This document shows, piece after piece, positions 785 to 64,000 of a stretch of DNA of 64,000 bases. Made by a program: the position numbers and the translations under genes. The stretch is from Chiloscyllium plagiosum (taxonomy: Eukaryota): NCBI RefSeq assembly GCF_004010195.1, contig NC_057753.1, positions 10,123,358-10,187,357 on the forward strand, written 5' to 3'. The notes beneath the pieces were generated by a model. The model made no database searches. It saw only the letters and a list, made by a program, of their open reading frames with translations, and had not been told where the DNA came from. How positions within the stretch are numbered: position 1 is the stretch's first letter; each line of letters opens with the position of its first letter.

Positions 785-1210
785 ATTATTGTTGAAAATT
801 ATTGTGGTCCTGATGGATTGAGCGACTGTCAGACATTGATTCTCCAGTGTCTGCAGTCCTCACTTTCACGTCAGAGTCAAATTGCAGTGCTGGAAAAGCA
901 CAGCAGGTCAGGCAGCAACCAAGGAGTCGGAGAGTTGACATTTCGGGCATAAGCCCTTCATCTGTTGATTTTGAAACGTCGTTCTTCAGATCTTCAAATA
1001 ATCTGTATAAAGAGATTACAAAAGTCATCAATGTCAGTCCAGGGTACAAATTCAGAACAAGCAATTTTACTTGCCGTGGAACATTGTTTTCTTTTGTTAT
1101 TCCACAAGATTGAAAGCACTATCCCATTCTCTCTCTCTATCTCTCCTCCTCCCCCCCCCTCCCCACCCCCCTCATTCTCACTCTGCTCTTACAAATTCTC
1201 CTGAAGATTC
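785..1210 (-). pseudogene. Zinc-finger gene module A: acceptor and exon leader only, interrupted by the CR1 insertion
   Basis: Colinear with the leaders of paralogs at 6380-6640, 32110-32480, 57270-57640 and 63760-64000; acceptor TTTATACAG near 1004-1012 (-). Confidence 0.75.
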
Positions 1211-3672: not shown

Positions 3673-3895
3673 GCTGAAAATGTGTTGCTGGAACAGCGCA
3701 GCAGGTCAGACAGCATCCAGGGAACAGGAGAATCGACGTTTCGGGCATAAGCCCTTCTCCATGCATTCCTGAAGAAGGGCTTATGCCCGAAACGTCGATT
3801 CTCCTGTTCCCTGGATGCTGCCTGACCTGCTGCACTGTTCCAGCAACACATTTTCAGCTCTGATCTCCAGCATCTGCAGACCTCACTTTCTCCTC
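3673..3895 (+). mobile_element. Palindromic non-autonomous PLE-derived element with hammerhead motif
   Basis: Inverted arms of ~90 bp; 16-bp TSD TGAGAAACATATCAGA at 3657-3672 and 3896-3911; inserted in a CR1 3' end. Confidence 0.8.
3763..3801 (+). ncRNA. Minimal type I hammerhead ribozyme motif
   Basis: CTGAAGA(3769-3775)-A-GGGC-TTAT-GCCC-GAAAC-GTC(3794-3796); palindromic ACGT stem III; stem I is weak. Confidence 0.7.
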
Positions 3896-5024: not shown

Positions 5025-5365
5025 TCCCCTCCCCCCACCTTATCTCAGTCCCAACCCCTGGATTCAGCACCGCCCTCTTGACCTGCAATCTTCTTCCCAA
5101 CCTCTCCGCCCCACCCCCTCTCCGGCCTATCACCCTCACCCTCACCTCCTTCCACCTACCGTATTCCCAGCACCCCTCCCCCAAATTCCCTCCCCCCTAC
5201 CCTTTATCTCAGCCTGCTTGACACACCAGCCTCATCCCTGAAGCGGGGCTTATGCCCGAAACGTCGATTCTCCTGCTCCTCAGATGCTGCCTGGCCTGCT
5301 GTGTTTTTCCAGCACCCCACTTTTCAACTCTGGTCTCCAGCATCTGCAGTCCTCACTTTCTCCTA
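5025..5365 (+). mobile_element. PLE 3' end / pseudo-LTR with mutated hammerhead
   Basis: C/T-rich tract, then CTGAAGCG-GGGCTTATGCCC-GAAACGTC (5238-5265) and the GATGCTGCCTG...CATCTGCAGTCCTCACTTTCTCC tail; same layout as the GIY-YIG-bearing copy at 20755-21300. Confidence 0.75.
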
Positions 5366-6215: not shown

Positions 6216-7177
6216 GGCCGAAGCCTCAGCTGCACACGTGTAGAGCCCCTCCCTGCTGTGAACTCTTCTTTCCAGGCCCATACTCAGTGAGCTGCAGCAG
6301 TAAGATCTCTCATCCACTCCCACTGATGCTGAAAACATACTCAAACGGAACCAAAAAGCTTTGTTCCTTCTCTCGGAATGACAGTCGAAAATCCTTGCTG
6401 TCCTGATGGATTGAGTGACTGTCAGACATTGACATCAAAGTGAGGTCTGCAGACACTGGAGAGGCAGAATTAAAAAAGTGCAGTGCTGGAAAAGCACAGC
6501 AGGTCAGCCATCATCCGAGGAGCAAGGGAGTCGATGTTCCAGGCCTCATCTGTTGATTTTTGAAAATTCTGTCTTCAAATCTTCAAATACTCTGTAAAAA
6601 GAGACGATTAAAGTCGTGCCTGTCAGTCCAGGGTAGAAAAGAAAAGATAAAGTAAAAACAGAAAAGAGATTTATTCCACCTCCTTCCTAATCTCTATCCT
6701 TCTGTCCCTCCTCACCTGGGTAATTAAGACACATACCTGAATTTGCAGAGTCTGCTCCCTCCCTGGATTAACTCTAGTTGCTTCAAGTGAACAGATTTCC
6801 CTCTCTCTGTCCCTCCCAGGATGAAGTGTTGTCCAGACGAAGTGAGTTTCACTCCGAAATTGACAGGGCCATTGTGACGACAACAATTGGAACGGGGGTG
6901 GGAGGGACAAGAGGGGGAGGAGCAAGGGGCAGGGCAAAGCCAACAGCGGGTCCCCACTACGCCTTTGCAAAAATCCCTTCCCCTTCAGAGAATCCCCACA
7001 GTGTAGAAGCAGGCCACCCGGCCCAAAGACTCCACACCTACCCGCCGAAGGGTAATCCACCCACAGCCATTCCCCTACCCCTATTGCTTTGCATTTACCC
7101 CTGACTAATACGCCTAATCTGCACATCCCTGGGCCCTATGGGTAATTTAGCATGGTCAATCCACCCTAACCTGGACA

Positions 7178-8580: not shown

Positions 8581-9726
8581 AGAGAAAAAGTCTATTTCCT
8601 TGCTGTATGTCTCTATGTCTATTGGTGTAAATGTTGTAAATCATAGCTGGGTACTAATAGTTAGATGTGAGTGCACTGTAAGAATCCTGGGAGAACCCTA
8701 TTTTTGGTTTACTTGCTCATGAACAAACATTAAGCACGAGTGCCTATTTATTTATGATTTTGTTTCATTTTTCTTGTTTGATTCCCTGCTGTGACTATAC
8801 CCTGGGTCTGGATGGTTGACAGGCTGGGAGATTATGGGTTGGATGTCGATTGAATGTTATATTGTTCCAGAAGTTGTAAAAGGGGGGTGAAAGCTTTAGC
8901 AGAAATCCAGCAGAATTGAGAACAGACCGACCTCTTACTCTGTGGGAACAGGGAATTCAACAGAGGACAGGAAAATCAGGACCTAAAACCTAAGCTGACA
9001 CCAGACTACCCTGCTAGTGCTTTGATTAGCAGTGCCAACCCTCTACCTTTACTGAGCTTCCCATTTGACTACCCCCTCGATATTCAGGATCCAATCCTTG
9101 TTATCCTGAAGCCATGTCTCTGCAAGGAGTCACAGATCATAATTATTCTCTTCAATGTGTGCAGTCAATTCATTCGCTTTTGTTACAATGCAGCACATGT
9201 TCTGACGTGCTGTTTTTGGTTTGAATTTTTGTGATATTTAAAACCAGTTTTGAGTGCTGGTATATTTACTCTCCTTGTCCCTTTCTATTGTTCTCTGATG
9301 TATATTTTCCACATCACTACATTGCTCACCAGCCTTGATATAATTGGCCATGCTAAATTGCCCATTGTGTCCAGGGATATGCAGGTTAGGTGGGTTAGCC
9401 ATGGGAAATGCAGGGTTACAGTTTCATGGTAATAGAAGCAGGAGGCGGCTATTTGGCCCATCCAGCCTGCTCCACCATTCATTAAGATCATGGCTGATCT
9501 TTACATCGTCTCAGCTCCTCCTCCCTGCATTATCCCAACCACCCTTTATTCCCCTACTGTGCAAAAACCCATCCAACTGTGTTTTGAACATACTTAATGA
9601 AGCTGCCTCTACTGCTTCCTTGGGCAGAGAATTCCATAGATTCACTACTGTCCAGGAAAAGCAGTTCCTCCTCATCTCTGTCCTAAATCTATTCCCCCTA
9701 ATCTTGAGGCCTAGTTGCAGCCGCCA

Positions 9727-22730: not shown

Positions 22731-22949
22731 GAGTCAAAGTGTGGCGCTGGCAAAGCACAGCAGGTCAGACAGCATCCGAGGGGCATGACAGTCGATGTTT
22801 CGGGCATGACCCCTTCATCGGGAAAGATGTGTGGATGTAGAAAGGGGGCGCAGCATCCTTCTACACCGGTCAATGCTGGTTGTCCGATAGGTGCAGCAAG
22901 AAATGAGCAAGGCAAGTGGTATATCAGCAAGAGGAATTGAGTTCGGAAG

Positions 22950-26530: not shown

Positions 26531-27003
26531 ATTTCAGTTTTGTAGACTAACAAAAGAAAAGAATGTTCTGTAGAAAGTAGAATTGCTTGTTCTGAATTTT
26601 CACCCAGCACTGACAGTGATGACTTCTGTAATCTTTTCTTAGAGTATTTGAAGATCTGAAGTATTGACTCACCTGCTCCTCGGATACTGTCTGACCTGCT
26701 GTGCTTTTCCAGCACCGCACTTTTCGACACTGACTCTCCCACGTCTGCGGTCCTCACTTTCACGTCACTATCTGACAGTCATTCAATCGATCGGGAGCGC
26801 AACGATTTTTGACTACAATTCTGTGAGAAGGAGCAAAGTTTTTTGGTTCCTGTTTGAGTACGTCTTCATTAAGAGTGGGCCTAGATGAGAGACCCTACTG
26901 TTGCAGCGCACTGAGTGTGGAGCCTGAAACAGTGATACGGCCTGGAAAGAGAAATTCACAGCAGGGAGGGGCTGTACATGTGTTTGTGGCTAAAGCTTCG
27001 GAC

Positions 27004-27693
27004 ATGAAGAAACCGTGGAAGTGTGGTAACTGTGGGAAAGGCTTCCGTACTCCGTCTGACCTGGAGATTCATCGACGCAGTCACACCGGGGAGAGGCCAT
27101 TCTCCTGTCCCAAGTGCGGGAAGGGCTTTGCCCAGACCTCTGCCCTGCGGAGGCACCAGCGGGTCCACACGGGGGAGAGGCCCTTCAGCTGCTCCGATTG
27201 CGGGAAGGCCTTCAGCCGTTCCTCCGATTGGCTGACCCACCGGTGGGTCCACACGGGGGAGAAGCCCTTCAGCTGCCCCGAGTGCGGGAAGGCCTTCAGT
27301 GATTCCTCCAACCTGCGGAGGCACCGGCGGGTCCACACGGGGGAGACCCCCTTCAGCTGCTGTGAGTGCGGGAAGGCCTTCAGCAATTCCTCTAATCTGC
27401 TAACCCACCGGCGGGTCCACACAGGGGAGACCCCCTTCAGCTGCCCCGATTGTGGGAAGGCCTTCAGCAATTCCTCTAATCTGCTGACCCACCGGCAGGT
27501 CCACACAGGGGAACGCCCCTTCAGCTGTCCCGAGTGCGGGAAGACCTTCAGCAATTCCTCCTACCTGCTGAGGCACCAACGGATCCACACGGGGGAAAGG
27601 CCCTTCAGCTGCCCTGAGTGTGGGAAAGGCTTCAACTGCTCCTCCCTCCTGCGGAGGCACCAGCAAATTCACGTGCCGTTGCACGGGGATTGA
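27004..27693 (+). CDS. Tandem C2H2 zinc-finger protein (module D), 8 fingers, 229 aa from the ATG
   Basis: [14 protein letters not shown] followed by 8 complete CxxC-x12-HxxxH fingers with TGE(R/K/T)P linkers; acceptor TTTTCTTAG before 26643; AATAAA at 27860. The ORF track start at 26854 is a non-ATG codon. Confidence 0.9.
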
Positions 27694-30222: not shown

Positions 30223-31254
30223 TTGGTATTTGTGTTTAGAGCTAACAAAGGAGCAAGAGATTTCAGCAGCTGCTGCACTGTTGGTATTGCACAAGGGAAA
30301 ACCAGCACTCTCAGTAATGGCACATACTCAAGCCAGGGCCTTGGATCAAAGGTAAGGTCACGGGAACCATAAGAAATAGGAACAGGAGAAGGCCATTGAG
30401 CCTGCTTCTCCATTCAGTAGGATCGTGGCTGATCTGACATTCCCCACATCCACTTTCCTGCCCTTTCCCTGTAACCGTTGATCCCCCGAACGAACACGAA
30501 TCTATCAATCCTAGTTTTAAATGTCACAGGAAGGCTGTCAATGTTTTAAATGTGAAAGTCTGGGAAACATGGCAATTGCTAATTTAACAATATTATATCC
30601 AAACCAACACGTCCATTGATGCGATAATAACAAACTTTTTTTATTTAGAAGTTTCTCAACAACACAGTAAGAAGTAACAAAACTAACACAAGAGACACTG
30701 CAATTGTTACTGTGTGCCTGCTCCTATTTGGAGACTAGCTGGTATTCTGTTAACTGTCTATCCAGTTCATAGCTATAAGAGGGGAGACACAGACTGCCTG
30801 ATACAGACAGACAAGCGACAGGAGAAGGCCACTTGGCCCTTCGAGCCTACCCCACCACTCAATAAGATCAATGGCTGATCTGATGTGAACCTCACCTCTA
30901 CATTCCTACACATCCCCAACAACCTTTCAGCTGCTTGGTTCGCAAGAACCTATCGACTCTGCCTTAAAGATTCTGAATCCACTGCCTTTTGAAGACACAC
31001 AACCCTCAGAGAGAAAAGAAATCACCCTCATTTCTGTCTTAAATGTGCAATCCCATACTTTTAGATTATGATTCCCTAGATTAAGATTAGGATACAACCT
31101 CCATTCAAATATCATCTATGGTACAGTTCACTATCTCAAAGTGCTTCACGTGAACATAATGAGAATTCCTTTAAAAATCACAAGACCGGAGCACAGGTTA
31201 GGACAGGTGACTAAAGACTTGGTCAAAGGGGCAGATTTAAGGCAGCCTTTTAAA

Positions 31255-31922
<668 letters not shown>

Positions 31923-32789
31923 GGCTGAAGCTTCAGCCGCACACAAACATGTGTACAGCCCCTCCTCGCATGAATTCCTCTTTCCAGGCCGTATAACTGT
32001 TTCAGTCTCCACACTCAGTGCAGTGCAACAATAGGGTGTCTCATCCAGTCCCACTGATGCTGAAATTGTATCAAAACAGGAACTAAAATGCTTGGCTCCT
32101 TCTCACAAAATCATAATCGAAAATTGTTGCGGTCCTGATGGATTGGGTAACTGTCAGATATTGACGTGAAAGTGAGGACTGCAGACGCTGGAGAGTCAGA
32201 GTCGAGAAGTGCAGCACTGGATCAGGTCAGGCAGCATCCGAGGAGCAGGAGAGTCAACATTTCGGGCACAAGCCCTTCATCTGTTGATTTTGAAACTTCC
32301 GTCTTCAGACCTTCAAATACCCTGTAACAAGAGATTATAGAAGTCATCACTGTCAGTCCATGGTAGAAATACAGAACAAGCAATTCTACTTTTTGCAGAA
32401 CTTTTTTTGCTTTTGCACAAAATTGAAAGCACCATCCCACTCTCTCCCTCTATTCTCACTCGGCTCTAGCTAATTCTCCTGACAGTGATGATTGAGGATC
32501 TTACTGGAATACAAACTGACGTCTGAATTTTGGATAACTCCGCCTGAAAGTTAATACCTTTTATGACATTGGGATACTGCTGAGTGTGAGCAGGTCTGAT
32601 TTTGAGAAGCAAAAATAAGTGTGTCAGTTCAGGATGAACCTGCAATGCAGCTTCTTGAGGAACATCCAGACACAAAATGGTTAATGTCGGGGGTGCGGTG
32701 AGGTGGGAGGAGGTGGAAATGAGACAAAGGCATTGACACCAACACCAGAGAGAAGCCGAACATACAGATGTAGCAACCGTTAGTGGCAA

Positions 32790-33735: not shown

Positions 33736-34559
33736 GGAAAGTTTTCAAAACCTCCACAAAAAAACAAAGGAAAGAATGGAGGGTCAAACCAAACTTTTGA
33801 GGGTCAGCTTGGAAGAATCAACGCCTCAGGGTATAGATCCTTTTGTTACATAATGATCGTTCAATTTTGTGACCAAAATAATGTATTGTTTCAGACAGTA
33901 CATTTACGTGATGCGATACAATTCCCTGTTCTCAACTTTACCAGGATGTTGCCAGGAATGGTTTGAGTTATAAGGAGAGTCTGGATAGGCTGGGACGTTT
34001 TTCCACTGGAGCCAAGGAAATTGAGAGGTGACTTTATAGAGGTTTATAAAATCATAGGGGTATAAATAAGGTGTCTTTTCCCTAAGGTTGACAGGCAGAA
34101 GGCTCATAGAATCCTAACAGTGTGGAAACAGGCCCTTCGGCCCAACAAGTCCACACCGACCCACCGAAGAGTAACCTACGCAGACCCATTTCCCAACATT
34201 TATCCCTCATTAATGCACGTAACCTACACATCTATGAGCAACTGAGCATTGCGAATTCATCCAATCTGCACATCTTTGGATTGTGGGAAACCAGAGCACC
34301 TGGAGGAAAACTACACAGACACGTTGGGCGATGGGGGTGTGGAGAATGTGTAAACTCGACACAGTCACCCACCCCGAGGCTGGAATCGAAGCTGAGCCCC
34401 AGGCGCTGAGGCAGCACTGCTAACCACTGAGCCACAGTGCCACCATAGACTGAACCTCTACTATTCTATATCCAACGTAGAATTCCCCCAGCTCAAATAG
34501 TTTTTCAGTTTCATATCCGGTATATAAAATAATCGGAAGTTTGCAAAACTCTGCTCCTC

Positions 34560-34755
34560 TCACCTCCAGTCGGAGAACTCACTCGCTGTTCGAAATTCGC
34601 GCCCTGTTTCGGGCCGCTCGAGGCCCCGCCCCCACGCTGTGTCCATCTTCAGGCCACGCCCCACAGTGCCGCGGCAATTAGTCCCCGCCCCCGGGCTGCT
34701 GTGGACTACAGGTCCCGCCCCCACACCTCCGCAGCCTCAAGGCCCGCCCCGCGGA
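34560..34755 (-). promoter_or_regulatory. CpG-island promoter and probable first exon of ZNF module E
   Basis: Several GC boxes, ACTACAGGTCCC (ACTACAnnTCCC motif associated with ZNF143/THAP11) near 34705, and a minus-strand donor GTGAGT at 34582-34577. Confidence 0.6.
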
Positions 34756-35121
34756 GCCTCTGCGACGTCTCCCCGCCCCCACGCGGCCGCTGCCTCCAGG
34801 CCCCGCCTCCACGTCGCCTCTGCGACGTCTCCGCGCCCCCACGCTGCCGCTGCCTCCAGGCCCCGCCTCCACGTCGCCTCTGCGACGTCTCCCCGCCCCC
34901 ACGCGGGCCGCTGCCTCCAGGCCCCGCCTCCACGTCGCCACTGCAACGTCTCCCCGCCCCCACGCTGCCGCTGCCTCCAGGCCCCGCCTCCACGTCGCCA
35001 CTGCAACGTCTCCCCGCCCCCACGCTGCCGCTGCCTCCAGGCCCCGCCTCCACGTCGCCTCTGCGACGTCTCCCTGCCCCCACGCGGGCCGCTGCCTCCA
35101 GGCCCCGCCTCCACGTCGCCT
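34756..35121. repeat. GC-rich minisatellite, 60-61 bp unit, about 6 copies
   Basis: Unit GCCTCTGCGACGTCTCCCCGCCCCCACGCTGCCGCTGCCTCCAGGCCCCGCCTCCACGTC. Confidence 0.95.
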
Positions 35122-35524
35122 CCGCCTTCATGTGGGATGGGACAGAGGGTTTCTCTTTGTTTCGTTACTAGACTCTTAATTTATATTGCATTCAGATTCC
35201 ACCATCTGCCATGGCAGGTTTTGAACCCAGGTCCCAAGACCATTACCTGGGTGAATAGTCTGGTGACAATATCCCCTGAGCATATTAGCGTATTGTGTTG
35301 AGAGGTAGCAAAGGAAGAGCAAGGGGCTTCAGCAGCTGCTGAGCTGTTGATATTACACAAGGGAACATCAGCATTCTCAGTAATGGCACATACTGAAGCC
35401 AGGGCCTCACATCAGAGGTAAGGCCATGGGGAGTCACAAGGAATAGGAACAGGAGTATGCCATTCGGCCCCTTGAGCCTGCTCCTCCATTCAATAGGATC
35501 ATGCCTGACCTGACATTCCTCACG

Positions 35525-36431: not shown

Positions 36432-36615
36432 TAGGAGAAAGTGAGGACTGCAGATGCTGGAGATCAGAGCTGAAAATGTGTTGCTGGAAAAGCGCAGCAG
36501 GTCAGGCAGCATCCAAGGAGCAGGATAATCTCTTCTCATGCCCGAAACGTCGATTCTCCTGTTCCTTGGATGATGCCCGACCTGCTGCGCTTTTCCAGCA
36601 ACACATTTTCAGCTC
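36432..36615. mobile_element. Palindromic PLE-derived element, hammerhead partly deleted
   Basis: Inverted arms; 14-bp TSD TAGTCACAGTATTC at 36418-36431 and 36616-36629. Confidence 0.8.
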
Positions 36616-38369: not shown

Positions 38370-39760
38370 AGATGCCAGTGTTGAACTGGGGTGTACAAAG
38401 ATAAAAATCACACAACACCAGGCTATAGTTTAATTGGAAGCAGTAGCTCACGGAGCACTGCACCTTCATCAGGTCGTTGTCAAGTATAAGATCGCAGGAC
38501 ACATAATTTATAGAAAAAATTTACAGTGTGATGTAACTGAAATTATGTATTGAAAAAGACCCCAGATTGTTTAAGTTTCTCATCTTTTAGAATGGGCATG
38601 TTGATTTCAGTTCTTTCATATGTAAATCCCAGAACTTCCTTAAAGTTACATTCTCAAGTGGGCTTTAACAATAGGTGCCATGTTGGCCCAGATAGTGCAT
38701 TGAAGGTGCACTGTGTGATGCTGTCTGTGCCCCAATGTTCAGACAGATTCTAATCCAAAAAAGGATTTACAGAATCTTACATGGATTCATGCAGTTTTTG
38801 AACAAAATAGAATGTAATTCTGCAACTACAAATTCACCCCACAAACTTATATGTGAGTGTTTGTGAGGAGGGGGGGAATGTTCTGAGAGAGTGTGAGTGT
38901 AAACGGATATAAGTCTGTGAGAGGTTGCGTGTGAATGTGGAAGTGGATGTGTGAGTGTATGAGAAAGGGTCTGCATGAGTGTATGGGTCTGTAGCTGTGT
39001 CTGTGTGTGCAGTGCAGTGGGGTCACCTGTAGTGTGACATGAACCCAAGGTACCGGTTGAGGCCATTCCCATGGACACCGAACTTGGCTATCAGCCTCTG
39101 CTTGCCTACTTTGCATTGTTGCCTGTCCTGATGTCCGCGTGGAGGATCGTCACCTGGAGGTCGAGGTCGAATGCCCCGGACCGCTGAAGTGTTCTCAGAC
39201 TGGGTCTTTTTAAATTTATAATTTCAGTTAAATCACACGGTAACCTTTTGCTATAAATTCCGTGTCCTATGACCTTATACTCCACGATCACCTGATGAAG
39301 GAGTAGCGCTGAAAAAGCTAGTGCTTCCAAATAATCCTGTCAAATAAACATGTTAGACGCTGCCTGACCTGCTGCGCTGTTCCAGCAATAAAGTTTCAAC
39401 TGTGACATGAACCCAAGGTACCGGTTGAGGCCATTCCCATGGATACCGAACTTGGCTTATCAGCCTCTGCTCGCCTACTTTGCATTGTTGCCTGTCCTGA
39501 TGTCCGCTTGGAGGATCATCACCTGGAGGTCGAGGTCGAATGCCCCGGACCGCTCAAGTGTTCTCGGACTGGGTCTTTTTAAATTTATAATTTCAGTTAA
39601 ATCACACGGTAACCTTTTGCTATAAATTCCATGTCCTATGATCTTATACTCCACGATCACCTGATGAAGGAGTAGCGCTGAAAAAGCTAGTGCTTCCAAA
39701 TAATCCTGTCAAATAAACATGTTAGACTGTAATTTCGTGTCGTGTAATTTCTGACTCAAA
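38370..39760 (-). mobile_element. Penelope-like element: pseudo-LTR, GIY-YIG C-terminus and inverted pseudo-LTR, with a ~369-bp tandem duplication
   Basis: Minus strand EHFSGPGHS..DLQVTIL..QRLIAKFGVHGNGLNRYLGFMSHY (39030-39198, repeated 39401-39567); hammerhead remnants at ~38440-38475 (-), 39289-39323 (+) and 39658-39692 (+). Confidence 0.85.
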
Positions 39761-44793: not shown

Positions 44794-46995
44794 TATCTGG
44801 ATTATAAAGCTTATCACTGCTTCGGTGATCTTATCAATTGCCATAAGTACCTATCTTGTTCACTGATAACCTTTTTTAAGGAAATAAATCTTTAGTCCTT
44901 CCCCAGTTTGGTGAATGTATCACTCTCTTGATCCAAAGTCATGTGGTTGACTCTTAACTGCCCTCTGAAATGGCACTTGGTCTTTTGGGAGACAAAGTGC
45001 CACATTCCATGAACGAATAAAGGAAAATATTCAGGAGAAAATTGTCAGTAAAGGGAATACTGAGAGCTAGTGATACTGGTTGAGTAACCCAGAGATGTAG
45101 GACTTCTGAGAACAAAAATTCATCTCCCATCATGGCTGCTAGTGGAATTTATGTTCAACTAATAAAAAGATCTGGAAGTGAAAGTTTGTCTCAGTACTGG
45201 CAATCCGAAAACCATTATTGCTTAAAACAATGAATCACAGATGTTTGAGCTCAGAAACAAAAGTCACAATTGCTGGGGAAACACAGAAGATCTGGCAGTA
45301 TCTGTGGAGAGAAAACAGTTAATGTTTTGAATCCAGCCAAGTTTTGAAGGGCCACTGCACTAAAAACAGTAACACTGTCGTCTCTTCATAGATGCTGCCA
45401 GAACTGTTCTCCAACCATTATTGATTGTTGTGAAAGTGTCCTTCTCGGGAGGGAAATTTACCATTCAGAACCCTACATGCGTGTGTGCGTGCACACATAA
45501 CTCCAGACCTACTACAATGTATTTGACACTCAGCTGCCTTCTAGCATGTAGCCAATTGCTCGGTCCAAGGGCCATGACGGATGGTGAGCAAATGTTGGAC
45601 GTGTTGGCAACAATCACATCCCACAAAATATTTTCTCATAACTGAAAAAGCTCAGGTTAATGAAGGACAGCCAAACCAAACTACTATGGGAAAGTCATGC
45701 CCAACTAACTTGATTAGTTATAAATATTGTTTTAAAATCCTCTTCAGAGAGGTCATTGGTTCCATCACTGCTGGAATACTGCATGCAATTCTGGGTTCTC
45801 TACTGCAGGAAGGATGTTGTGAAACTTGAAAGGGTTCACAAAAGATTTACAAGGATGCTGCCAGGGATAGAGGGTTTGAACTACAGGAAGAGGCTGAATA
45901 GACTGGGGCCGTTTTCCCTGGAGCTTTGGAGGCTGAGGGGTGACTTTATAGATGTTTATAAAATCATGAGGGGCAAGGATAGGGTAAATAGACAAGATTA
46001 TGGGTAGACAAGGCAATGAAGAAGGCTTTCGGCAGGCTTGCTTTCATCTGTCAGAACATTGAGCACAGGAGTCGGGATGAATTGTTGCAGCTCTCTCAGA
46101 TTCCACACAACATCACAAGGCGTGACCCTGCCCCCTCGGACTGACCGTCCCTTTGAATATCAGGGGGAAGACACCTCTTTTATTGTGATGATCAGGAAAC
46201 ATGCCTTCCTTCAAAAAAGGGCTGTGCTCACGAATATTTGGATAGAGGACACAAGTTATCATTTGGGTGAAGATCAATCTTCTTTCAGAGAGAGGAGGAG
46301 CAGCAGCTTCAGAAGTTCATGGTCCAACTTCTGAAAAGACGTTGTCTGGTTTGCAGTTGTTTCTGGGCTTGTAATATCATACTGCAGCGTATCGTATATC
46401 TTCAGTAAGAGCGTCTCTACTGCACGATAGAGGTCCATTCAGCAACTTGAATCCATGTAAACTCTTTGTGGAGGTATGCAGTCTGCCCCATAATCCTGCT
46501 GGTTTACAGTTACATATAGATTTATACATATAGATCTTTGGAGATTAAGAGAGGAAAGAATGTTCCACAGAAAGTAGAATTGTGTTTAGATTTTCTATCA
46601 TGGACTGACTGTGATGACTTTTGCAATCTCTTTTCACAGGAATATTATAAGAGAAGAATTTGGAGGCAGAAATCTCAGACCAAACATCACGTCAAAGTCT
46701 GACAGTCACTTGATTCACCAGGATGTGGATATTGATGGCCTTGAAAACAAACGAGAGAAGGTCGACCTGTTTCATTAGGTTTTAAACATTAGTGTGACTG
46801 GAAACTCAGGGTCTCACATACCCACACACTAGAGTAGTGACTGGAAAAAGCTTTACAGACTGAATGAGAGTGTTCCAATTATCAGAGGGTTCACCACTAA
46901 CACGAGACACATGCTGTAAGCATGAGCGAATTTTCTGGTCCAACTGGTTTTGGTTTTCTGAATATTGAACTCAGAGAGATGAGGGTGCCTGCACC

Positions 46996-54519: not shown

Positions 54520-54701
54520 GGAGGTGCTGGTGTTGAATCGGGGTGGGACAAGGTCAGAAGTCACACGACACCAGGTTAGAGTCCAACAGCTTTCGGAGTG
54601 CTGCTCCTTCGTCAGATGAAGTGATGAAGGAGCAATGCTCCTCAAGTTTGGGATTTCAAATACACCTGTTGGACTGTCACCTGGTGTCATGTAACTTCTG
54701 A
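54520..54701. mobile_element. Palindromic PLE-derived element with two divergent hammerhead remnants (paralog at 60570-60788)
   Basis: TCAGAAGTCACACGACACCAGGTTAGAGTCCAACAG and its inverse flank CTGACGA-A-GGAGCAGCACTCC-GAAAGCT (-) and GTGATGA-A-GGAGCAATGCTCC (+). Confidence 0.75.
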
Positions 54702-57103: not shown

Positions 57104-57724
57104 GGCTGAACCTTCAGCTGCAGGCAAATAAGTGTACAGCCCCTCCCTGCCGTGAATTAGTCTTTCCAGGCCGTATAACTGTTTCTGCAACAGTAGGGTC
57201 TCTCATCCAGTCCCACTGATGCTGAAAACATACTGAAACAGGAACCAAAAAGCTTTGCTCCTTCTCACAGAATCATAGTTGAAAATCGTTGTGGTCCCGC
57301 TGGACTGAGTGTCAGACATCGATGTGAAAATGAGGACTGCAGAGTCAGAGTCAAAGTGCAGCACTGGAAAAGCACAGCAGGTCAGGCAGCATCCGAGGAG
57401 CAGGAGAGTTGATGTTTCGATCATAAGCCCTTCACACCTGTTGATTTTGAAAAATAAGTCTTCAGATCTTCAAACACTCTAAAGAGATTACAAAAGTCAT
57501 CACTGTCAGTAGAAATTCAGAACAAGCAATTCTACTTTGTGGGACATTTATTTCTTTTGTTAATCCACAAGATTGAAAGCACCATCCCACATACCCTCTC
57601 TGTTCTCACTCCGCTCGAACTAATTCTCCTGAAGGTACTGATTCAGGATCTTACAGGGATAGAAAAGTAAAATACGTCAAGACTGACATCTCTTTGAATT
57701 TTGGATAACTCCACCTGAAAGTTA

Positions 57725-62016: not shown

Positions 62017-62226
62017 TGGAGAAAGTGAGGACTGCAGATGCTGGAGATCAGAGTCGAGAGTGCGGTGCTGGAAAAGCACAGCAGATCAGGCAGTTTCCGA
62101 GGAGCAGGAGAATCAATGTTTCAGGCATCATTCCTGATGAAGGACTTATGCCCAAAACGTCGATTCTCCTGCTCCTCAGATGCTGCCTGACCTGCTATGC
62201 TTTTCCAGCACCACACTCTCGACCAG
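62017..62226. mobile_element. Palindromic PLE-derived element inside a SINE
   Basis: Inverted arms; CTGATGAAGGACTTATGCCCAAAACGTC (mutated hammerhead, ~62134); TCTACATTTA on both flanks. Confidence 0.75.
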
Positions 62227-63580: not shown

Positions 63581-64000
63581 GGCCAAAGCTTCAGCTGTTC
63601 ACAAATGCATGTACAGCCCCTCCCTGCCGTGAATTCCTCTTTCCAGGCCGTATAATTGTTACAGGCTCCACACTCAATGCGCTGCCACAGTAGCGTCTCT
63701 CATCCAGCTCCACTGATGCTGAAAATGTACCAAAGAATTTTGCTCCTTCTCACAGAATCGTAGTCAAAAATCGTTACAGTCCCAATGGATTGATTGACTG
63801 TCTGTCATTGACATGAAAATGAGGACTGCAGACGCTGGAGTGTCAGTCAAAATGTGTGGTGCTGGAAATACACAGCAGGTCAGGCAGCATCCAAGGAGCA
63901 GGAGAGTTGCTGTTTCGGGCATAAGCCCTTCATCTGTTGATTTTGAAACTTGAGTCTACAGATCTTCAAATGCACTGGAAAAAAAGATTATGAAAGTCAT

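Follow-up and report, generated by a model that had tools for sequence, protein, structure and literature searches.

Several zinc-finger (ZNF) genes in the 64,000-nucleotide stretch of Chiloscyllium plagiosum DNA analysed here (the window) carry, in the leader of the finger exon, the same fragment of a Penelope-like element (PLE) with part of a hammerhead ribozyme. The question raised by this locus is whether the fragment, referred to here as the cassette, was kept for a job or has only been copied along with the genes. An earlier note on this DNA had placed it in six modules (A, B, D, E, F and G), and in all six we found the PLE piece at those positions, in the sense strand of the ZNF gene (Table 1). 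The distance from the acceptor AG to the cassette, which the note had put at about 20-40 nt, measured 40 nt in A, B, E and G, about 42 nt in F and 19 nt in D. Likewise, the 5' junction reads CAGATGA as described, the GGGC/GCCC stem II and the GAAA box were both found in A, E and G, and the triplets were those listed for A (GUC), E (GUU), F (AUC) and G. With both junctions common to 50 copies, the pattern is far beyond chance.

Table 1. Positions of the cassette, its host exon and related repeats (window coordinates, unless another sequence is named).
Feature	Position	Strand	Remarks
Module A cassette	837..962	-	837-873 (3' part) in inverted orientation, same site
Free copy of the parent PLE end	5150..5362	+	pLTR sequence upstream; led to the RT/GIY-YIG parent
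Module B cassette	6438..6551	-	8 nt of stem II deleted
cass2, partial PLE stub copy	22736..22827	-	antisense, about 3.8 kb upstream of the module D acceptor
Module D cassette	26662..26759	+	hammerhead part deleted
Module E C2H2 finger array, pseudogene	31250..31922	-	lower end approximate
Module E leader, host, 3' of the cassette	31923..32169	-	begins TCACGTCAA
Module E cassette	32170..32281	-	terminal PLE stub running from core base G5 (minimal hammerhead) to CTCACTT
Module E exon 5' flank, host, 40 nt	32282..32321	-	from acceptor AG (32322-32323) to the cassette; ends TCAACA
Module H leader, divergent ZNF subfamily	46640..46740	+	empty site at 46686/46687
Module F cassette	57328..57436	-	stem II broken
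Module G cassette	63817..63934	-	triplet AGC, no U16.1
L132 paralogue	acceptor ~8980, cassette ~8939-8823 (of L132)		

The six copies have aged in different ways. In module E the cassette comprises GAUGA, stem II, GAAA, GUU and the tail, with an 8-nt internal deletion, and the use of its acceptor is deduced from RNA depth at the level of the family. No frame is open from the start of this exon through the leader into the fingers; the array has an ATG at 31922, a TAG at 31881-31883 in the first finger and frameshifts, and module E is a pseudogene. The inversion in module A comprises the 3' ~30-37 nt of the cassette plus a few host bases, and about 60 nt beyond the cassette an inserted element that carries a GDSL-esterase ORF (frame 2-859) breaks the exon; ORFs of that sort belong to CR1-type LINEs. 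Module D has lost ~21 nt from the start of its cassette together with ~21 nt of flank, and what is left precedes an intact 8-finger ORF (frame 26827-27693). Elsewhere in the window, a GC-rich tandem array at 34528-35301 gives rise to long low-complexity ORFs.

The cassette consists of about 120 nt of a PLE end and starts at G5 of the minimal hammerhead core. Thirty free copies, taken genome-wide, read ...ATTC CTGAAGA A GGGC TTAT GCCC GAAA C GTC GATT... and finish at a sharp 3' end, CTCACTTTCTCC; the same-base 3' end was found in 105 of 315 PLE matches. Upstream of free copies lies a coding remnant matching GIY-YIG (Pfam, E 1.5e-5, above the cut-off), together with an RVT_1 match (E 1.8e-4, below the Pfam cut-off), although one of three parent fragments had no Pfam match. 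The PLE origin proposed for the cassette is thus supported by reverse transcriptase and GIY-YIG remnants, and the family has the terminal repeat with a minimal hammerhead, the variable 5' truncation, the inverted arms and the sharp 3' end of PLE fragments. According to the available part of one study, minimal hammerheads lie in the pLTRs of metazoan PLEs, mostly as single motifs on truncated copies (PMC4209133, Cervera and De la Pena 2014). The parent resembles the motif described there in its CUGANGA box, the extra base before G10.1, the G10.1-C11.1 pair, GAAA, the palindromic C15.2-G16.2 and GUC, whereas the cassette differs from it in being without the element's C3-U4 and stem I 5' arm and in having been multiplied by host gene duplication, not by transposition.

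At E<=1, no hammerhead family matched the window in an Rfam scan, and the cassette is therefore assigned to the hammerheads by its motif and its parent element. The nine Rfam matches that were obtained are miRNA or lncRNA models below their gathering scores, the best of them on inverted PLE hairpins. At 3702-3888, 36439-36595 and 62023-62194 there are almost perfect inverted pairs of PLE sequence that meet at the hammerhead core or close to it; such pairs produce spurious matches to Rfam miRNA precursors and could yield double-stranded RNA. Hammerhead-like motifs of the GANGA-stem-GAAA kind were also seen in other repeat families, at 39294 and 39663 on the plus strand and at 54613, 61305 and 20845 on the minus strand.

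The note had also described the ribozyme as disarmed, and in cis this was the case throughout: the CUGANGA core box is present in none of the 50 cassettes, vs 31 of the 37 copies of a second PLE stub used as a control (see below). The host bases AUCAA before the core position cannot pair with GACU, and stem I is absent from the predicted fold of module E. At its other end the cassette overlaps the host site by 2 nt (TC) and stops 3-5 nt before the usual PLE end. Neither a target duplication at the insertion site nor an inverted arm on the cassette was visible. We considered the flank TCAACA as a decayed inverted PLE arm and rejected this possibility, given that those columns have no CpG-type variation and that the empty sites read CAAACA.

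A start within the catalytic core might suggest that the cassette was clipped in a special manner. We collected 135 free copies of the same family with a full 3' end and, since raw counts of 5' ends are inflated by co-amplified families, clustered them by their flanks into 77 independent events; the clustering is imperfect (one cluster was joined via N or element-internal flanks) and the BLAST ends are good to a few nucleotides. The 5' starts were distributed as follows: 10 at >59 nt before C3, 7 at -19 to -6, 17 at -5 to 0, 8 inside CUGANGA, 15 at +7 to +26 and 20 later, and an inverted arm was present in 40 of the 77. In 200 kb sampled from 20 places on other contigs, 10 of 29 PLE matches also started inside the core; the density extrapolates to roughly 5 x 10^5 matches, related families included, in the 3.56-Gb genome. 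A G directly precedes 14 of 21 copies starting at -4, a count that was not de-duplicated and from which 9 of 30 copies were dropped as another family. A start at or inside the core is therefore common for this PLE, and the idea of a special clip does not hold.

How the cassette came to be in so many genes was addressed with a profile search that used the flanks only and covered 1.264 Mb of contiguous C44 around the window, 91 kb of it N. The upstream flank matched at 74 places, of which 50 are filled and 4 empty; for 18 the downstream flank gave no match, and 2 were dropped for gaps >200 nt. Several of the 18 are further divergent leaders without the cassette. The best 40 cassette matches had been picked for similarity to the cassette itself, and for this reason the flank-only models were those used in the rate tests; 22 of these 40 best-scored matches lie on other contigs, which implies that the filled family is larger than 50. 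Leaders of the H type form a separate family (40 scored of 245 candidates), and its 29 examined members were all empty, as the note had claimed for module H.

On a tree built from the flanks with the cassette removed, 50 filled and 33 empty rows are separated by a single change, vs a mean of 26 when the states were shuffled; the support for this split was 99/99, with a bootstrap that is incompletely settled. The filled group is star-like, as in a burst, and we observed no leader from which the cassette had been cleanly lost, as all 50 filled-side leaders paired by the flank models keep at least the tail. Module H is only distantly related and is not the immediate pre-insertion sister. Upstream of the acceptor the copies have intron blocks in common for 3.5 kb or more, implying that the unit was duplicated as DNA. 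The pattern is that of a passenger, with the same junctions in the paralogues, an empty site in the outgroup paralogues, one gain, and other repeats amplified together with it (37 copies of the second stub and the shared intron blocks). These results sustain the proposals that a single insertion marks a ZNF subfamily and that it was amplified with the family; the cassette was likely inserted once and likely copied passively by DNA-level duplications.

Some loci in the surrounding region have histories of their own. At C44 ~10243657-10243900 (+), a leader with the 5' junction of the cassette has a full PLE 3' end and another 3' flank, which is also found on two other PLE copies; this locus is likely a recombination of the cassette with another PLE copy. 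A filled leader near C44 9659700 (L025) contains a younger PLE stub downstream of the cassette, and at C44:9890702/9891187 a whole filled leader is duplicated in tandem (485 bp) and followed by an ORF with 14 fingers. The H-type subfamily, which has the empty site, is young, with end branches of ~0.02 vs ~0.1 in the filled one (L032-L060, mostly on unplaced contigs), and its burst is later than that of the filled subfamily.

The second stub, cass2, provided a built-in control. It is the largest cluster of free copies, with 37 members sharing both flanks (C44:9.52-10.79 Mb), and belongs to nearly the same PLE subfamily as the cassette, the two consensuses being ~95% alike. Twelve of the 37 copies sit upstream of a leader, antisense to it and at most 9 kb away; 7 others have a leader at 12-20 kb, and the remaining 18 have none within 20 kb. 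Its flanks resemble what we take to be an old LINE remnant. The neutrality of cass2 is an assumption, its place in the intron is putative, and the tie to a leader within 9 kb holds for 12 of the 37. The intron itself was dropped as the main control, because in about one third of the modules it has taken up unrelated insertions (mean 0.196, median 0.117).

Measured at non-CpG positions, the difference from the consensus was 66/919 (0.072) in the hammerhead part of the cassette and 284/3958 (0.072) in its tail, 0.061 in the 5' flank and 0.082 in the downstream leader of the host exon, and 293/4226 (0.069) in the cass2 control. The cassette thus decays as fast as the second PLE stub, with a rate ratio of 1.04 (95% 0.88-1.22, bootstrap over copies); this test is blind to a constraint slowing the rate by less than ~12% and to a function that depends on loose complementarity. 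In ten paired genes the cassette/control comparison gave 0.064 vs 0.072 (p 0.56; because the copies are related by descent, this and all other p-values are approximate). CpGs were kept at 149/423 positions in the cassette and 96/247 in the control. The note had itself offered neutral CpG decay as an alternative, and it is this alternative that the data bear out. Intron sequence close to the acceptor is somewhat more divergent than the cassette (medians of 0.089-0.117 and 0.071, respectively), which could reflect a mild exon-wide constraint. A conserved window at cassette nt 41-55 (p 0.0014; 0.027 by copy permutation) was not retained, its family-wise p being 0.27; after correction no 15-nt window of the cassette was better conserved than the control.

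The ribozyme structure has not been kept either. Gaps occupy 11.6% of the hammerhead part vs 2.6% of the tail, and 5.3% of the hammerhead part in the control. GANGA persists in 28/50 cassettes vs 32/37 control stubs (p 0.0025), stem II, with G10.1-C11.1, is fully paired in 23/50 vs 22/37, GAAA remains in 30/50 vs 22/37, and the AC-GUH site in 9/50 vs 15/37 (p 0.029), that is, worse than in the control; the whole remnant with the site is found in 4/50 vs 8/37. Out of 200 stem II cells, 121 are the same, 19 are wobble, 21 broken and 38 gaps, and just 1 is compensatory. Neither sequence nor structure is therefore more conserved than in the control stub. An ORF with at least five fingers and a start within 420 nt was found in 17 genes, whose first three fingers have a dN/dS of 0.35. 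The cassette is no better kept in these intact genes than in the 33 broken ones (0.069 vs 0.073; all p >= 0.24), which argues against the idea that the remnant was kept for a job. We conclude that the cassette probably decays neutrally.

The note had further proposed that the cassette is exonised. Four runs were compared, at 80% likeness, with a near-consensus paralogue (L132:8250-9300). In three contig sets the depth of the 40-nt exon-flank bin was about that of the downstream leader and 10-30 times that of the intron bins (1239 vs 96-107 in X13, 9935 vs 309-397 in X1 and 7722 vs 209-265 in X2); that these three sets are RNA is a guess, expression is poorly measured by contig depth, and the comparison has no DNA control. 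In the fourth run, X19, which is on record as RNA and of which 2% was read, sense reads numbered 16 at 8938 and 8941, 9 at 8972 and 1 at 8990, and reads of the opposite direction stayed at 9-11. Contigs in X1, X2 and X13 bridge leader and cassette by >31 letters per side. These three have different organism codes, and the insertion is thus probably older than their split. The reads mix many paralogues and, on the cassette, free PLE copies, so that the result is one for the family; as the upstream exon and a spliced junction were not seen, the exon boundary is drawn from depth. Retention of the cassette in spliced RNA is therefore probable, the depth step, the sense bias and the bridging contigs fitting the proposal at the level of the family and at 80% likeness. 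The RNA run search listed no run with module E itself, which has no bearing on the expression of that module. None of the 50 modules has a frame that stays open all the way from the exon start into the fingers, and changes in cassette length ignore the frame (22/14/14 by mod 3), indicating that the cassette is leader and not coding sequence.

Taken together, the data are best explained, with a probability that we put at roughly 0.8, by an ordinary short PLE copy that entered the untranslated leader of one ZNF gene, was dead on arrival, was duplicated passively and has been decaying neutrally. The observed part of this history consists of the PLE parentage, the shared junctions, the one change between filled and empty sites, the shared intron and second stub, and the equal decay. 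Its beginning would have been an ordinary short product of PLE reverse transcription, with a 5' end in the usual truncation zone around the core, and the insertion into the last-exon leader of the founder gene would have been tolerated because this leader is untranslated. The mRNA would then carry a cassette that should not cleave itself, having no U4 and no stem I partner, and that would mostly not be cleavable in trans either.

An alternative is that antisense PLE RNA, either piRNA or siRNA from the inverted hairpins, targets the mRNAs with the cassette, so that the activity of the element tunes the subfamily en bloc. The cassette lies in sense and is probably in spliced RNA, inverted PLE arms that might give double-stranded RNA are present in the 40 of 77 independent copies mentioned above, and clean losses are lacking. 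Moreover, all 50 cassettes match some sampled free copy exactly over at least 21 nt (median longest match 30 nt), but this is to be expected of any stub from so abundant a family. Loose complementarity is enough for targeting by small RNAs, and hence a weak sequence constraint would be expected; still, the rate equals that of the control stub and intact genes keep the cassette no better than broken ones. In addition, antisense PLE RNA would tend to lower ZNF output precisely when the elements are active. We regard this explanation as unlikely.

A little less likely again is that the ATGs of the stub and a short upstream ORF damp the output of ZNF protein, either incidentally or under mild selection. 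The cassettes have a mean of 2.46 ATGs each, with at least one in 47 of 50, the consensus contains an ATG-to-stop frame within the cassette, and the main frame leaves the leader untranslated. Against it, roughly one copy in four has lost or altered the first ATG (cassette nt 2-4), the contexts are weak, several ATGs outside the cassette already precede the best ORFs, and no window was conserved after correction.

The note had also raised the possibility that these mRNAs are substrates in trans, an intact PLE hammerhead pairing with the ACGU palindrome and the 3' arm of stem I and cleaving the ZNF mRNA. Such a putative mechanism is coherent with the dimeric model of minimal hammerheads in the available text of PMC4209133, and 9 of 50 copies still have AC-GUH; however, the site that it needs is gone from 41 of 50 and has been lost faster than in the control. 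Only ~8 bp of pairing would be available, and in module E the predicted partner of the site is the host flank UCAACA (fold z -1.19, not better than shuffles). Moreover, as far as these sources go, metazoan minimal hammerheads cleave poorly even as dimers (PMC4209133), and the hammerhead of an anole PLE needed its protein and left no cleavage ends in RNA-seq (PMC11167929). Cleavage in trans is accordingly very improbable.

Finally, that PLE machinery spread the ZNF modules with the stub as a cis signal, as in Adineta vaga, is hardly credible: PLEs can mobilise intron-containing host genes (PMC3846280, in the part available), the filled group is star-like and one locus combines the cassette 5' junction with a foreign 3' flank, but both stubs are internal with shared host sequence on either side, whereas mobilised units have terminal repeats as a frame, and the copies share intron blocks over 3.5 kb and are clustered in one contig region. 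The two cases are alike in the association of PLE ends with an expanded family of intron-containing genes, and differ in that, according to the same portion of that report, PLE termini frame the genes there, while here the stubs lie inside the duplicated unit.

Passive copying with the gene, the reading that we prefer, has a counterpart in the KZFP clusters of the mouse, where, in the portion of PMC11952569 consulted, segmental duplication multiplies TE copies and chimeric TEs mark recombination. In both cases a TE older than the duplication was copied within a block of ZNF genes; here, unlike there, it is a PLE stub in the finger-exon leader of a shark-type ZNF family. As for the insertion itself, the accessible parts of PMC8557442 and PMC11167929 report short PLE insertions that are frequently 5'-truncated, have 5' copies in inverted orientation and end sharply on the 3' side; unlike these, the cassette is without an inverted arm, ends 3-5 nt short and has no target duplication. 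In the literature covered, which leaves out most subscription journals, we found no description of PLE stubs in shark ZNF leaders, and the word 'shark' is absent from the accessible part of a preprint (10.64898/2026.07.22.740005).

In summary, the cassette can be classed as a fragment of a PLE and as a passenger amplified with its host genes, and it fails both as an active hammerhead and as a selected exaptation. The small-RNA explanation, if correct, would tie the activity of a retroelement directly to a large family of transcription factors, although our data give no support for selection. Two stubs from nearly the same PLE subfamily were present in the founder ZNF gene, and an mRNA leader can tolerate a dead hammerhead. 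As a passenger, the cassette is a clean cladistic marker that defines, and relatively dates, one burst of duplication of shark-type C2H2-ZNF genes, and its presence or absence can be scored across species.
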